Source of the DNA: a virus
IMG/VR virus record: IMGVR_UViG_3300035696_000018
Location: 1-64,000 of that record
Reading direction: 5' to 3' (one strand)
Length of the DNA: 64,000 nt
Shown here: piece by piece, positions 9,675 through 23,059 of the stretch
Layout: the number at the start of each line of letters is the position of its first letter
Position numbering within the stretch: the stretch's first letter is position 1
Notes under the pieces: generated by a model
Seen by the model: the letters and a program-made list of their open reading frames with translations, nothing else
The model's database searches: none
What the model was told of the DNA's origin: nothing
Made by a program: the position numbers and the translations under genes

Positions 9675-9893
9675 ATGCGACTCCAACTAAAGTTTGAAGA
9701 GAGCGATTTCGAGACGCTCCGCTCCTTCGACAAAGCAGTGAAGCGTCAACTCGGGCCGAACGTTTACGTCGGCACTGATTCGCTGTGCTTCTACTTCGAC
9801 TACCCGAAAGAGCTAGTCCAAAGGTTGAGACCGCTGTGTCCGCACAATCAGCTTGAATTCGAACTCGAATCTTCGCTGCCAGATGCCAAATGA
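9675..9893 (+). CDS. hypothetical protein
   Basis: ORF coupled to the next (ATGA overlap). Confidence 0.65.
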   Translation: MRLQLKFEESDFETLRSFDKAVKRQLGPNVYVGTDSLCFYFDYPKELVQRLRPLCPHNQLEFELESSLPDAK

Positions 9894-10183
9894 AAACTCC
9901 AGCCAAGTACAAAGTCGAATACTCAGTACAACAGCTTTGCGTAGGCAATAAGTGGGAGAATGTCCGATGGCACAGTTTTGATACAAAAGCCGAGGCCACG
10001 GATGACATGGATAATCACGTAAAACCGTATTATCCAGAAGACAGATTTCGAGTACGCCGCATAAAGGTGAGAACCGACAAGTGCCCTTGGCATTGTTTGC
10101 ATTGCGGCAACGGGCCGTTTGACGTAAAACATCACCAACGGATAGAAAGACTCATAACTCGTGTGGTAAATCTTGCGATATGA
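9890..10183 (+). CDS. hypothetical protein with C-terminal Cys/His motif
   Basis: ORF track, translational coupling. Confidence 0.65.
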   Translation: MKTPAKYKVEYSVQQLCVGNKWENVRWHSFDTKAEATDDMDNHVKPYYPEDRFRVRRIKVRTDKCPWHCLHCGNGPFDVKHHQRIERLITRVVNLAI

Positions 10184-10653
10184 AACTCGCTATTTGGATT
10201 GCATTCGTGGTCTTGCTCTCGGGATGTCGAGAGCAGACTGGTACATGTGCCCCCGACTCGATGGAACGACTAAGCGGGTTCTTGCCAATCAAGACCCCGA
10301 CACCATCGGCTAAGTTTGCCGCAATGATGCACACGACCAAAGCGGGGACGGAGTTGGGAGAGATAGACGAGGCGTGGGACAAAGTATATACGAATCACCC
10401 GCTGGTCCCCATTCTCGTCAAGAATGCTGATGGGATTGCGATTGACTTGGAAGAGGCGAAGATAAATTTCAACTCCCCGTATCTGTGGTCGGGCAAATGC
10501 CAAGGCGGGCATTGTGCATTGGTTTACTTTTATGGTGATTACATTGTTCTTTCCCATAGTCAGTACATTCCCGGCACTTGGGAGTGGTACAGGCAGACGA
10601 ATTCGTATTCGTGGCTATTAACGAATACGTATTGCATATGGAAAGTCAAATAA
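10180..10653 (+). CDS. putative lipoprotein
   Basis: signal peptide with LSGC lipobox. Confidence 0.65.
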   Translation: MKLAIWIAFVVLLSGCREQTGTCAPDSMERLSGFLPIKTPTPSAKFAAMMHTTKAGTELGEIDEAWDKVYTNHPLVPILVKNADGIAIDLEEAKINFNSPYLWSGKCQGGHCALVYFYGDYIVLSHSQYIPGTWEWYRQTNSYSWLLTNTYCIWKVK

Positions 10654-10654
10654 C

Positions 10655-10732
10655 GGGTTGGTAGCTCAGTCCAGTCAGAGCAGGAGTCTCTTAAACTCAA
10701 GGTCGTGGGAGCGAAGCCCACCCGACCCACCA
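10655..10732 (+). tRNA. tRNA-Lys(CTT)
   Basis: GAGT-CT-CTT-AA-ACTC, CCA. Confidence 0.85.
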
Positions 10733-10736
10733 TTTT

Positions 10737-11150
10737 ATGCATGACAACTACAAAAAAGGCCAAGAGGCAATCCTCAAAATGCAGGAACGAGCACTCCAAT
10801 TAGGTTGGGACGTATGTTTCCCCACGGTGGAAAGTCGCTTCGATGCGGTTCTTGTAGATACAAATGGAAAATGCCATAGGATTCAAACCAAATACGTGGA
10901 TTATCATCGGAGTTTTTCCAAGGGGTCCGTCGTATTGGATTTGCGGAAGAAAACGTGGAATCATGGTCAAACGAAAACCTATTCCAAATCGGAGATAGAC
11001 GCAATAGTTGCATATATCCCACAAGCAAAACGACTTGTATGGCTTGGTCCCGAAGTATTTCACCAGAAAGCGTCAGTAACTTTGAGGTATCAGCCGTCGA
11101 AAAACAATCAAGTCCGAGGAACTCGAAAAGTTCCTGATTATGAATGGTAA
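10737..11150 (+). CDS. PD-(D/E)XK homing-type endonuclease
   Basis: KGQEA..P..ESRFDAVL..RIQTK..YSKSEID motif set. Confidence 0.75.
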   Translation: MHDNYKKGQEAILKMQERALQLGWDVCFPTVESRFDAVLVDTNGKCHRIQTKYVDYHRSFSKGSVVLDLRKKTWNHGQTKTYSKSEIDAIVAYIPQAKRLVWLGPEVFHQKASVTLRYQPSKNNQVRGTRKVPDYEW

Positions 11151-11289
11151 TTTTGCGGGCCGTAGTCCTAAACACTCGACAGGAGGCCGAAAGGCTGACC
11201 GGAGAACTTTGCGATAGCGGTGTAATACGCTTACGAAATGAGGCGGGAGTTTAGATGTTAGTACCGCCCGATGCCCGCAGATTCACTTT

Positions 11290-11348
11290 GAGATACTAAC
11301 AGCAACCAACAAAAATTCGACTGAAATTCGAAAACCAAATGGTATCTC
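11290..11348 (+). ncRNA. ACAGC-family element displaying a Phe anticodon stem-loop
   Basis: GAGATACTA-ACAGCAA..TTCGA-CT-GAA-AT-TCGAA..TGGTATCTC. Confidence 0.55.
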
Positions 11349-11364
11349 GCCTATTTATCAACAT

Positions 11365-11439
11365 CAGGGTGTAGTGTAGTGGTAACACGCTTGCTTCGGG
11401 AGCAAGAGACCGGGAGTTCAAATCTCCCCATCCTGACCA
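11365..11439 (+). tRNA. tRNA-Pro(CGG)
   Basis: CTTGC-TT-CGG-GA-GCAAG, CCA. Confidence 0.9.
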
Positions 11440-11440
11440 T

Positions 11441-11525
11441 GCTACTGTGGTGAAACGGCAAACACGCTACGCTCAGAACGTAGAGCCGAAAGGCATTGTG
11501 GGTTCGACTCCCTCCAGTAGCACCA
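11441..11525 (+). tRNA. tRNA-Leu(CAG)
   Basis: CTACG-CT-CAG-AA-CGTAG, long variable arm, CCA. Confidence 0.9.
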
Positions 11526-11529
11526 ATTT

Positions 11530-11748
11530 ATGAAATGGAGAAAAGGTCAAAAAGTAGTTATCGAAGTTCACGTTGGCGGCATCGTAACCGAAGAGGAAGG
11601 TGTCATATCCGAAGTGAACAAGAAGGGAGTGTATTTGGACAATGGACCGGGGAACGACCCCAACGGGCCATTTGACAAGAAAACTGGCGAGCACATTACC
11701 ATTCGAGAAGTGGGAATGCTTGGCAGTCAAATCATTCGCCCGAAGTAA
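11530..11748 (+). CDS. hypothetical protein
   Basis: ORF directly after a tRNA. Confidence 0.65.
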   Translation: MKWRKGQKVVIEVHVGGIVTEEEGVISEVNKKGVYLDNGPGNDPNGPFDKKTGEHITIREVGMLGSQIIRPK

Positions 11749-11869
11749 TTTCGCTCGGCATCAGTGAGGACAGATAGGGATACCGGGACTTTAGTGATGC
11801 GGGACGCTTGCCTTCAAGCGATGAAGGGCTGCTCAATTCTGAGTGACCTGACATGCCGAGCACCGTTTT

Positions 11870-12331
11870 ATGAAGTATAGTAAAGAAATGTTGGAAAATG
11901 CCGCTCGCACTTCCACGTCAATTGCAGAGGTTATGCGTAATCTTGGCATTAGACGTGCAGGCGGAAGCCATTCCCATCTTTCACGTCGGTTGAAATTCTT
12001 TGCTATAGACATATCACATTTTACTGGCAAAACGTCATCAAAAGGTCGTCCTCAGAAACGAAAGACGTGGAAAGAAATACTTATTCTTCGGTCAGAGGGA
12101 CGACGCACCGCCGCATATCAATTGCGTCGTGCTTTAATTGAAAGCGGAGTCAAATACGTTTGCTCTGAATGCGGGCTTCCTCCGTTTTGGAATGGGAAAG
12201 AATTGGTAATACCAGTTGACCATCAAAACGGCAATTGGTTGGATGACCGCCCAAACAACGTAAGATTTCTGTGTCCTAATTGTCATACGCAGACACCGGG
12301 ATACAGTGGAAGAAAACGGCCATGTGGATAA
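11870..12331 (+). CDS. HNH endonuclease with N-terminal HTH-like region
   Basis: CSECG..VDHQNGNWLDDRPNNVRFLCPNCH; stop inside tRNA-Leu. Confidence 0.85.
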   Translation: MKYSKEMLENAARTSTSIAEVMRNLGIRRAGGSHSHLSRRLKFFAIDISHFTGKTSSKGRPQKRKTWKEILILRSEGRRTAAYQLRRALIESGVKYVCSECGLPPFWNGKELVIPVDHQNGNWLDDRPNNVRFLCPNCHTQTPGYSGRKRPCG

Positions 12332-12402
12332 GCGAAGCTGGCACAAGCAACACGCTTAGAACGTGTCATCCTTTATCGGTTCGAATCCGTTCATGGCTAC
12401 CA
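12318..12402 (+). tRNA. tRNA-Leu(TAG), short variable arm
   Basis: ACACG-CT-TAG-AA-CGTGT, CCA. Confidence 0.7.
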
Positions 12403-12406
12403 ATTT

Positions 12407-12574
12407 ATGACAACACAACAGAAACGCATTAAGCATGAGAAAGACTACATCGAGTTCTTGGAACGCCGAGTCAAAAGTTCCAACTACAAAAAGAATGTCA
12501 GTCCCGAAGAGTATGCGGCAACCGAGGCCAAGTTGAAGAAGGCCAAGCTTGTGATGCGAGTATTGTCGAAGTAA
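12407..12574 (+). CDS. small basic hypothetical protein (55 aa)
   Basis: MTTQQKRIKHEKDYIEFL...VLSK*. Confidence 0.6.
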   Translation: MTTQQKRIKHEKDYIEFLERRVKSSNYKKNVSPEEYAATEAKLKKAKLVMRVLSK

Positions 12575-12629
12575 TTCCGCTATGGTCGTAGGCGACCACA
12601 AAACCGTTAAGCCTGTAGGCAGGCAACAT

Positions 12630-12704
12630 GGCCCTGTCGTCTAGCAGCAGGACATCACCCCTTCAAGGTGAAGACCGTGAGTGCGATTCTCCGCAGGGCT
12701 ACCA
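12630..12704 (+). tRNA. tRNA-Glu(TTC), C33
   Basis: TCACC-CC-TTC-AA-GGTGA, CCA. Confidence 0.75.
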
Positions 12705-12709
12705 CTCTT

Positions 12710-13072
12710 ATGAGAACGTGGATTGAACAAAAACCAAACAAGAAAAACTGTGGGGTGATTGCAGTAGCCGTAGTAGCAAGTATCCCCGTAAACGTAGCCG
12801 CCGAGTGCATTGGAAAAGACGGAGCGACTACAACCAAACAACTCGTCAAAGCAGTTCGGAGGTTAGGATACAAATGTCCTGACCGATTGAAGGTGATGCC
12901 TCGACCTCCATTGGCAATCGCCAAATTGTCAAATCCAAAACGACGGGGAGGATGGCATTGGGTGGTGGTAGATGGAGACAAGATTTTCGACGGTATCAAT
13001 GGAAAGCCTGATGGCACCGTTGATTGGGTAAAAGGATGGCGAATCACTTCCTATCTCCCTATTTATGATTGA
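12710..13072 (+). CDS. peptidase C39-like protein
   Basis: Q....NCG.IAVA..HWVVVDG..IFD catalytic pattern. Confidence 0.6.
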   Translation: MRTWIEQKPNKKNCGVIAVAVVASIPVNVAAECIGKDGATTTKQLVKAVRRLGYKCPDRLKVMPRPPLAIAKLSNPKRRGGWHWVVVDGDKIFDGINGKPDGTVDWVKGWRITSYLPIYD

Positions 13073-13380
13073 TGAAATCACTATGCTTATTTTGGGCAAT
13101 AGTGTTTTTGACAGTCGGGTGTAGCGGGGTACGCTACATCGGGAAAGTTGGCGACGTTGACTTCTACAAAGTTCACACCGACAACTTTAACGGACCAACG
13201 ATTACCGCTCTGGTATCGTTGAGTAATGGTGTAACCAAAGTTGAAAGCGTCATATCGGCGACTTCAACCTCTACGCCAAGGATGGGAACGGAATTTGGGC
13301 CTGCTTCGGGGGTTTCCTCGTGGCAACAATCCACTGCAACTTCCACGGGCTGTACGGGTGGGAATTGCAGACTACCGTAA
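13072..13380 (+). CDS. putative lipoprotein
   Basis: TVGC lipobox. Confidence 0.55.
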   Translation: MKSLCLFWAIVFLTVGCSGVRYIGKVGDVDFYKVHTDNFNGPTITALVSLSNGVTKVESVISATSTSTPRMGTEFGPASGVSSWQQSTATSTGCTGGNCRLP

Positions 13381-19227: not shown

Positions 19228-19301
19228 AGCCGTGTAGTATAAAAGTAGAACATGTCATTGACACTGACAAGACGGTGGGGCAGTACCACTCACGGCTACC
19301 A
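19228..19301 (+). tRNA. tRNA-Val(GAC)
   Basis: TGTCA-TT-GAC-AC-TGACA, CCA. Confidence 0.85.
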
Positions 19302-22093: not shown

Positions 22094-22178
22094 GCTACGG
22101 TGGCGGAATGGCAGACGCATCAGCTTGAGGGGCTGACGGGTAATTCCTTGAGGGTTCAAGTCCCTCCCGTAGCACCAT
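22094..22178 (+). tRNA. tRNA-Leu(GAG)
   Basis: TCAGC-TT-GAG-GG-GCTGA, long variable arm, CCA. Confidence 0.9.
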
Positions 22179-22184
22179 TTGTTT

Positions 22185-22499
22185 ATGAAACTCGAAACCG
22201 TTGTCGTCACCGCAAAATTGTTCTGTGTCTTTGCTGGCACTAGCTTGCTCACTCTTCAAACTGGTTTAGGCCAATGGTCACAGACCGAAAAAAGCCCCAC
22301 CGTTATCCAATGGGTAATGGTTGTCGGCGGCTCTCTCGGAACGGGGTTAACGGCCACGGGTGCCTTCCTGTCCAACGCCTTCGGGAACTACATGAACAAC
22401 GTCAACATCAATGGAAATGGGCCAATCACGCCTCCCACGGGAAGTGTGAATCAGGTGTTGACAGAAGCCAAAAAGCCTGATACATTGGTTCCAGAATAA
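22185..22499 (+). CDS. small membrane protein (two hydrophobic segments)
   Basis: hydropathy pattern. Confidence 0.55.
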   Translation: MKLETVVVTAKLFCVFAGTSLLTLQTGLGQWSQTEKSPTVIQWVMVVGGSLGTGLTATGAFLSNAFGNYMNNVNINGNGPITPPTGSVNQVLTEAKKPDTLVPE

Positions 22500-22514
22500 C
22501 GGTTCTTTGAATTT

Positions 22515-22777
22515 TGTCGTAAGCGACTCTACGCTGGCCCGCAAGGGTTAGAGGAAGTTCGCCGCTGCACAGCAGCTATGGGAGAGTGCAAAACACTCGT
22601 TTGGACCAAACAGTAGCAGCAATCCTAAAGTCCCAAAGGCTAGTGCTGGCCGTGGTAAAGGGAAGGTTGGAGCAGTCCCCTTTAACGGGGGACCGGGTTA
22701 AAATCCGAGAAAAATGTAGAGATAAACCAGAACGGCGGCTAAAACACTGTGCTATATGCCGGTGGGTGCGAACGACA
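22515..22777 (+). ncRNA. rnpB: compact RNase P RNA (rnpB-like)
   Basis: CR-I GAGGAAGTTCGCCG (22551) and CR-V CAGAACGGCGGCTA (22728) complementary in P4; P2 CTCTAC/GTAGAG; P3 CTGGCCC-GCAA-GGGTTAG. Confidence 0.75.
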
Positions 22778-22985
22778 GATACAGAATGGGTGGACGCCCG
22801 TAAGGAGTATTCCGATTGGGCTGCGAAGGTGACGCCCCCTGACAGCACGTTTATCACTGTCCACCCACCAATTTGACAGTAGTGGGGACGGCAGAAATGC
22901 CGCACCAGCCTCGCTCAGTATCTTGTACGGGTCGTGTGCTTACCCGCAGTGACAAGTTCACATGAATATCTGCATCAGCACTCAC

Positions 22986-23059
22986 GGGGCCGTCGTTCAA
23001 CAGTAGGACGAGTCGTTCGCAACGATTAGATAGGGGTGCGACTCCCCTCGGCTCCACCA
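22986..23059 (+). tRNA. tRNA-Ala(CGC)
   Basis: G3-U70, AGTCG-TT-CGC-AA-CGATT. Confidence 0.9.

Follow-up and report, generated by a model that had tools for sequence, protein, structure and literature searches.

In a 64,000-nt stretch of viral DNA (the window), we confirm that positions 22513-22779 of the plus strand constitute a discrete, non-coding and structured RNA gene, and we put at roughly 0.78 the probability that its product is a phage RNase P RNA, derived from the bacterial type A enzyme, that would retain the full catalytic (C) domain, have lost nearly all of the specificity (S) domain and cleave pre-tRNAs. RNase P RNA, which processes the front end of newly made tRNAs, is generally viewed as a housekeeping ribozyme of all cells. 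A lineage that is widespread and restricted to viruses would extend by one ribozyme the translation-related functions of large phages and would constitute a natural experiment in the minimal size of bacterial-type RNase P (158-290 nt in the phage series analyzed here), making the role of the S domain directly testable on natural sequences. The original prediction, made from the letters of the window, had placed a phage-borne compact RNase P RNA of about 260 nt at 22515-22777. The element delineated here measures 267 nt and its ends agree with the predicted ones within 2 nt; its catalytic domain appears intact, and the proposed homology to RNase P RNA is borne out by bridging sequences and by covariation of the P4 and P6 helices.

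The window corresponds to positions 1-64,000 of an IMG/VR virus record 106.8 kb long, with a completeness of about 30% (CheckV), and its DNA is best represented in peat metagenomes. ARAGORN and Rfam locate 34-37 plus-strand tRNA genes within the first 28 kb of the window, and a T4-type baseplate wedge gene provided the sole name returned by PHROGs on ten large open-reading frames (ORF); together, the tRNA genes and the baseplate wedge gene point to a large, divergent tailed phage. The RNA gene occurs in a single copy in the phage's whole record and sits between tRNA-Leu (22094-22177) and tRNA-Ala (22986-23059), scoring 231 bits with the family covariance model (R1). A candidate sigma-70-like promoter (TTGACA, 17-nt spacer, TACATT, with TG) was identified by consensus match at 22458-22486 (+), 27 nt upstream of P1. 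Similar TTGACA-type promoters lie immediately 5′ of the copies in loci L105, L148 and L171, and an intrinsic terminator follows P1 directly in L105. Just 5′ of P1 in the window, at 22502-22510 (+), stands a GTTCTTTGA motif that is conserved in many family members and may be a leader or processing signal; GTTCTTTGA-like motifs are found 3-8 nt before P1 in L130, L133, L146, L147, L150, L163, L167, L179 and L183, whereas in L105, L148 and L171 the TTGACA-type promoters take its place. The motif shows no enrichment elsewhere in the window, and its interpretation as a general promoter was therefore rejected.

Family members were collected through pattern scans of IMG/VR and JGI metagenomes and, subsequently, with the covariance model R1, derived from 13 compact members. 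The resulting family has at least 45 distinct members, full-length and 234-386 nt long, found on viral and metagenome contigs. Their R1-guided alignment has 92.8% of its cells paired, compared to 68.6% in shuffles, with 43 of the 53 pairs varying on both sides, and pairing falls to 34-46% when the partners are slid by one to three columns. The P4 and P6 pseudoknots are both outside the structure of the R1 model. P4, made up of 3 bp, a bulged U and 5 bp, is 99.2% paired in 45 sequences and presents double-sided changes in five of its eight pairs; its inner helix occurs as CGCCG/CGGCG, CGAUG/CAUCG, CGCUG/CAGCG, CGUGG/CCGCG, CGAUA/UAUCG and CAAGA/UCUUG, among other variants. P6, which joins the strand following P5 with the loop of an inner hairpin (P17), is encountered as CAGC/GCUG, AAAC/GUUU and UAAC/GUUA. 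The presence of both type A pseudoknots in the window family is thus supported by covariation. RNAalifold, a program unable to draw pseudoknots, matched the CR-I strand to the invariant GGUUGGAGC block in place of P4; this pairing has zero double-sided changes and 22 broken cells and was discarded.

Two ORFs overlap the element, one on each strand (22586-22876, plus, 96 aa; 22576-22905, minus, 109 aa). No conservation of these ORFs was observed, with a stop-free frame spanning at least 90% of the element in only 4 of the 45 members, and the lengths of the element across the family are evenly spread modulo 3. Two sets of candidates were set aside as chance matches outside the family: seven GC-rich pattern matches (L151, L155, L159, L160, L162, L170 and L174) and about 140 loci harboring only the CR-I 14- or 16-mer.

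The element is closed by P1 (22513-22520 with 22772-22779), in which all five modelled pairs vary on both sides. P2 (22527-22533 with 22715-22721) is 98% paired, with six of its seven pairs covarying, and leads directly into P3 (22534-22551), a covarying 7-bp hairpin with a GCAA loop (22534-22540 with 22545-22551) and a variable length in the family; P2 and P3 are therefore both present, as originally predicted. J3/4 (AGGA) and the 5′ strand of P4 (AGU-U-CGCCG), the equivalent of CR-I, occupy 22552-22564 and include an invariant bulged U at 22559, while J2/4 (ending CCAGAA) and the 3′ strand of P4 (CGGCG-GCU), the equivalent of CR-V, occupy 22722-22740, with CAGAA and CGGCG-GCU at 22728-22740. 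The original prediction had read in these strands a pair of compensatory changes (TCGCCG/CGGCGG in place of TCCGGG/CCCGG). The strings are indeed there, and the geometry of P4 is preserved with its pairs swapped.

Following P4, the 5′ strand of P5 (22565-22568) pairs with 22616-22619 in all members, with covariation in four of four pairs, and the 5′ strand of P6 (CAGCA, 22570-22574) forms the pseudoknot with 22644-22648 in the P17 loop, again 100% paired and with three of four pairs covarying. Between the P5 strands lie 47 nt in the window (40-174 nt in the family, with a median of 63), versus approximately 165 nt in E. coli, so the specificity domain is truly reduced, in agreement with the original prediction. 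What is left of it (22575-22614) consists of a short P7-like closing helix (22575-22577/22612-22614 and 22579-22581/22606-22608), which receives moderate support, a conserved UGGGAG, a variable hairpin (22584-22598) and a conserved CGUUAAUACCAC-like strand, reading CGUUnnnACCAnA in the window.

The 3′ half of the element begins with J5/15 (CAA, 22620-22622), which equals the RF00010 consensus CAA and reads (C/U)AA in 45 of 45 sequences, and continues into an arm (22623-22671) formed by P15 (UCC/GGA), P16 (UCCC/GGGA) and P17 (GGC/GCC). Both P16 and P17 covary; P15 is 100% paired, and one member carries in it a double change from UCC/GGA to CCC/GGG. The 3′-side loop of this arm, L15 (AGGUU, with GGU at 22665-22667), is a candidate binding site for the tRNA 3′-CCA, and the form (A/U/G)GGU(U/C) is present in 45 of 45 family sequences. 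An extra hairpin to which no bacterial counterpart was assigned follows (hpA, 22675-22693; 97% paired, five of six pairs covarying) and precedes a second, covarying hairpin that is P18-like by position (hpB, 22694-22707), with a GNRA loop in most members and UUAAAA in the window copy. J18/2 (AGAAAAA(UG), 22708-22714) reads AGAAAAAUG in the window, with a family consensus of AGAUAAAUG versus the bacterial AGAugAAUG. A further hairpin between P4 and P1 (22745-22764) is optional, being found in a subset of members.

This architecture closely parallels that of type A RNase P RNA (E. coli M1 RNA, rnpB; Rfam RF00010), for which we used as reference the RF00010 consensus obtained by Rfam on E. coli rnpB. 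The helices follow the same order (P1-P2-P3-P4-P5-P6...P15-P16-P17...P18-P2′-P4′-P1′, with the P18-like hpB in the position of P18), P4 has the same 3 bp, bulged U and 5 bp, and P6 forms the same pseudoknot with the P17 loop. The segment from P3 to P5, encompassing J3/4 and the P4 strand, measures 13 nt in both (AGGAAGUUCGCCG in the window versus AGGAAAGUCCGGg in RF00010/E. coli rnpB). At the other side of P4, the window reads CCAGAA-CGGCG-GCU-A versus the bacterial ACAGAA-CCCGG-CUU-A, and J18/2 (AGAURAAUG in type A) is followed by a 7-bp P2 strand in both the window copy and the bacterial consensus. The arm likewise reads CAA-P15(UCC)-UAAAG-P16-P17...AGGUU-P15′(GGA)-GCA in the window versus CAA-ggcc-AAAUAG-P16-P17...GGGUa-ggcc-GCUuGA in Rfam. 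Overall, J3/4 AGGA(A), J5/15 CAA, L15 GGU, J18/2 AGAuRAAUG and J2/4 ending in CAGAA agree with RF00010 in sequence, order and length. Several traits nonetheless set the window family apart from type A. The S domain of type A (P7-P14, about 165 nt, with the T-loop/D-loop reader, CR-II and CR-III) is replaced in it by 40-174 nt, the P4 pairs are swapped, and there are an extra hairpin before P18 and an optional one between P4 and P1. Moreover, the RNA is phage-encoded within tRNA arrays, with no RnpA gene adjacent or elsewhere in the phage, and RF00010 is blind to the window copy.

The original prediction had named a search with Rfam RNase P models as part of its check. For the window copy, no Rfam RNase P match was obtained at gathering thresholds (100 bits for RF00010) or, for slices of 851 and 306 nt, at E≤10, and cmscan of window slices against all 4227 Rfam families returned no RNase P match, RF02357 included. 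RF00010 likewise found no match over the phage's own record or over ten other viral records holding the family, and running R1 on E. coli rnpB with filters off yielded nothing meaningful. This part of the check was thus negative, and it is overridden by bridging sequences that match both RF00010 and R1 and by the covariation of P4 and P6. Since there is no direct match between RF00010 and the window or between R1 and rnpB, the claim of homology rests on architecture and transitive matches; three independent lines of comparative evidence (a descriptor, the bridging sequences and the two covarying pseudoknots) nevertheless tie the window family to RNase P.

The descriptor was written from the bacterial consensus only. 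It specifies a 6-bp P2, one spacer base and a P3 that ends directly before AGGAAnnUCnnnn; next, AGAnRAAU leading into the P2 3′ strand; and finally AGAA followed by bases pairing with the first P4 strand, five after the bulged U and three before it. At least five of six P3 pairs were required, a rule relaxed because the third P3 pair of E. coli is non-canonical and a stricter version missed E. coli. The descriptor picks out E. coli rnpB at its correct position, the window copy and 42 further family loci; no other match was found in 2.13 Mb of real DNA, including the approximately 140 chance CR-I loci, or in 42.6 Mb of shuffled sequence. With covariation across the helices of at least 45 distinct sequences and this specificity, the resemblance lies well outside what chance would produce.

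Two bridging sequences are matched by both models at the same coordinates. The first, on viral contig L267, exceeds the gathering threshold of RF00010 with 191.5 bits and reaches 42.7 bits with R1 (E of about 1e-13). In the public 484-kb phage genome LR756508.1, a 226-nt element at approximately 76010-76235 (L251:2828-3053) scores 40.5 bits with RF00010 (E 1.6e-11) and 51 bits with R1 (E 2e-17), and its Rfam alignment assigns P1-P5, CAA, P15-P17, CGGGUAGG, AGAUAAAUG, P2′ and ACAGAA plus P4′ as we had mapped them by hand. A 187-nt copy (L257:1984-2170), wedged between two tRNAs with gaps of a few bases, scores 47.9 bits with the archaeal model of the RNase P clan, RF00373, and 50.2 bits with R1; both this copy and that of LR756508.1 are devoid of the two 3′ hairpins. 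Lastly, a 158-nt element (L258:8982-9139) reaches 73.6 bits with RF00010. These four elements indicate that phages hold a reduction series of RNase P RNA, in which the window family is the branch that Rfam misses. As a consequence of Rfam missing the family, standard annotation has a blind spot, and phage genomes are annotated without this mini RNase P RNA.

The distribution of the family is essentially viral. A three-block family pattern returned a single match in 185,579 cellular species genomes, and this practical absence argues that the family is virus-restricted and not a cellular lineage's own enzyme. The sole cellular match (L249, JBFRWB010000050.1) is a 3.8-kb contig binned in a Microcystaceae cyanobacterium metagenome-assembled genome; the bin probably includes phage DNA here, and the match gives only a weak hint about the host. 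In a blastn search of the region and two members against 50,697 phage records, no isolated phage was retrieved and the only match was a weak one to LR756508.1. RnpA (PF00825) was absent from the 6-7 phage records inspected, including this one and two complete genomes (205 kb and 354 kb), so host RnpA may be needed. Given this absence from the record and from two complete phage genomes carrying the RNA, the proposal that the ribozyme completes a self-sufficient RNA-production module is not supported.

Within the family, tRNA genes are found within 5 kb at 39 of 44 loci, and all 262 of these genes lie on the same strand as the RNA, with a median gap of 93 nt. The 3′-CCA is encoded by 291 of the 328 tRNAs (89%) located next to family members, compared with 7 of 26 (27%) in a small and heterogeneous set of control loci, and by 33 of the 34 tRNAs that ARAGORN predicts in the window; this high share of encoded 3′-CCA agrees with the invariant GGU of L15. 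It had also been proposed that the ribozyme is adapted to the phage's own non-TTC tRNAs. A G(U/A)GC(G/A)A T-loop does replace GUUCRA in 8 of the 34 window tRNAs (two Ile, Tyr, Phe, Lys, Val and two Ala), but the same variant is present in only 25 of the 328 tRNAs (7.6%) beside family members and 86% of them have a canonical T-loop, leaving that rationale weak. An enrichment of non-canonical T-loops beside the family (7.6% versus 0 of 26) was dismissed, the control being too small to mean anything. Most window tRNAs are then followed by AUUU or UUUU. Rfam reports five tRNA matches missed by ARAGORN (5940-6082, 2560-2661, 1198-1267, 12630-12701 and 19228-19298); the first of them stretches over 143 nt although the model has 71 positions, suggesting that this tRNA carries a large insertion, possibly an intron.

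Relatives of the element are represented in RNA libraries. Contigs with lengths of 151-474 nt and 85-99% identity to the window are present in four metatranscriptome runs (two peat, two wastewater). Of the 1.3 kb compared, these contigs cover only approximately 22500-22880, plus a conserved stretch of tRNA-Leu and, in a single run, the beginning of tRNA-Ala. In one expressed relative, P4 reads CGCCA/UGGCG, providing a further compensatory pair. Being assembled contigs of relatives, these data show presence and not ends or levels, and, for the same reason, the lack of contig cover on the flanking ORFs does not equate to silence. A 275-nt contig from a close relative (run X5, record 13; aligned on 22510-22741) has the same 30 letters at both ends. 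This repeat corresponds to k-1 in Logan (k=31) and thus denotes a circular unitig of about 245 nt in which the 3′ end of the RNA is joined to its 5′ start; in a second contig (X6, record 17), the 3′ part is placed upstream of the 5′ part. These joined ends could stem from a circular RNA, a tandem copy or a reverse-transcription artefact.

Directly 3′ of the mini RNase P RNA, at 22787-22871, the window encodes a tRNA-like RNA that was called by neither ARAGORN nor Rfam. It combines an acceptor-like stem of 9 bp (GGGUGGAC/GUCCACCC) with two internal arms and ends in an ACCA tail with AUUU behind it, as the real tRNAs do; its outer helix covaries in L140, L167, L178 and L181 (GAGACGGG/CCCGUCUC, GGGAUGGG/CCCAUCCC). 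The block is found in only a subset of family loci; metatranscriptome contigs show it adjoining the RNase P RNA in one continuous sequence. This RNA could be a substrate of its neighbor.

Several known systems provide a context for this reduction. The minimal type T RNase P RNA of Pyrobaculum and relatives (RF02357) is a natural RNA that has kept the C domain and lost most of the S domain, and in Pyrobaculum it remains active. Type T is archaeal, works with archaeal proteins and was reduced independently; the core features of the window element (P6, P16/P17 and GGU in L15) are those of bacterial type A. Engineered bacterial P RNAs (type A or B) consisting of the C domain only, or 'micro' versions thereof, still cleave pre-tRNA, with weaker binding and aided by protein and high salt. 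These are laboratory constructs, whereas the phage RNA occurs naturally, as a conserved family that has a small replacement module of its own. The RNase P RNAs detected by Rfam in phages (L267, L258 and LR756508.1) share with the window family their location in viral contigs, their tRNA-array context and the same core; that of L267 differs in keeping P7-P11 and a P12 stub, without P13/P14, and in its bacterial-like L15 and P18. The full-text literature, subscription journals being outside the coverage of the search, yielded no description of a phage RNase P RNA, and the only published viral case found was the RNase P-like RNA of camelpox virus, which showed no pre-tRNA cleavage in vitro (PMC3001073). 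Both RNAs are virus-encoded and RNase P-like; the camelpox one belongs to a eukaryotic virus and bears only a partial structural likeness.

For the mode of action of the mini RNase P RNA, we infer catalysis, recognition of the tRNA 3′-CCA through GGU and use of the host RnpA. The RNA would either be transcribed from a promoter of its own or derive from a co-oriented tRNA-array transcript. Its fold would comprise helices P1-P2-P3 and P5, two pseudoknots (P4, with its bulged U, and P6), the P15-P16-P17 arm and the P18-like hairpin. The ribozyme could then remove the 5′ leaders of the many pre-tRNAs of the phage by means of the metal site of P4 and J3/4, and probably cleave the tRNA-like RNA just downstream too. 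In bacterial RNase P, the S domain recognizes the T-loop/elbow of the tRNA. With this reader gone, substrate binding would take place mainly at the acceptor end and not at the elbow, with the invariant L15-like GGU pairing with the genome-encoded 3′-CCA and the CAA of J5/15 contacting the -1 nucleotide. The host RnpA protein probably helps, given that the phages encode none, and the lack of both an S domain and a phage RnpA means that activity could be weak or hang on other factors.

Not all features of the element fit RNase P equally well. Its P4 pairs differ from the near-invariant bacterial ones, and the P18-like loop of the window copy is not GNRA. The lack of a direct Rfam match and the overlapping ORFs of 96 and 109 aa might suggest an unrelated structured RNA with a convergent or chance likeness to RNase P, or a protein-coding stretch. 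We consider this extremely improbable: the bridging sequences are matched by both RF00010 and R1, the descriptor is specific, two pseudoknots fall at the same positions as in type A, and the ORFs are not conserved, with lengths evenly spread modulo 3. An origin from RNase P would also be compatible with a non-catalytic decoy that sequesters host RnpA or pre-tRNAs and thereby shuts down or redirects host tRNA maturation during infection. The loss of the S domain and the absence of a phage RnpA would suit such a role, as would the fact that the best-conserved regions (J18/2, J2/4 and the surroundings of P3/P4) are those that bind RnpA in bacterial enzymes, and the camelpox RNase P-like RNA sets a precedent for inactivity (PMC3001073). 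Yet positions involved in chemistry and docking, as opposed to protein binding, are invariant (the bulged U of P4, AGGA in J3/4, AA in J5/15 and GGU in L15), and the gene resides within tRNA arrays of the phage whose products require 5′ processing, making a decoy unlikely.

Catalysis could, alternatively, be directed elsewhere, in an active ribozyme whose main substrates are the adjoining tRNA-like RNAs, the tRNAs with variant T-loops or sites in phage or host transcripts, an idea close to that of the original prediction. Support for it comes from the tRNA-like RNA with a covarying acceptor-like stem and ACCA tail directly downstream, here and in several relatives, from the 8 of 34 window tRNAs with non-canonical T-loops and from the conserved mini-module (UGGGAG, hairpin and CGUUAAUACCAC) that stands in place of the S domain. 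We nevertheless judge it improbable, as 86% of the 328 neighboring tRNAs are canonical and the downstream tRNA-like block appears at only a subset of family loci. Within the preferred reading of a pre-tRNA-cleaving phage RNase P RNA, a bolder version can tentatively be entertained, although we lean against it: a private tRNA-maturation ribozyme that would dispense with elbow measuring in favor of CCA-GGU pairing and the new module (UGGGAG, hairpin, CGUUAAUACCAC), would require no phage protein, working protein-free or with host RnpA, and might exist partly as a circular RNA, as hinted by the circular 245-nt unitig in a peat metatranscriptome. With such a ribozyme, the phage could continue to process its 30-plus tRNAs and its tRNA-like RNAs under conditions in which the host RNase P is limiting, shut off or targeted.

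Additional observations concern other loci and the remainder of the intergenic region. On one strand of the 135-kb viral contig of L267, positions 9797-13140 hold a tmRNA (78.6 bits), about 13 tRNAs and the 286-nt type A RNase P RNA. A decayed copy (L032:1400-1606, minus strand) fuses the 5′ half of an L111-type mini RNase P RNA to a 3′ tRNA fragment (T-arm); it has no CR-V strand and is hence uninformative on P4. In the window, further conserved short blocks with an unremarkable fold z-score are found at 22885-22985, before tRNA-Ala. They include a hairpin motif (GAC-GGC-loop-GCC-GCACCAGC) common to the window, L140 and L178, and a CCCGCAGUGACAAG..CAUGAA block common to the window and L105.
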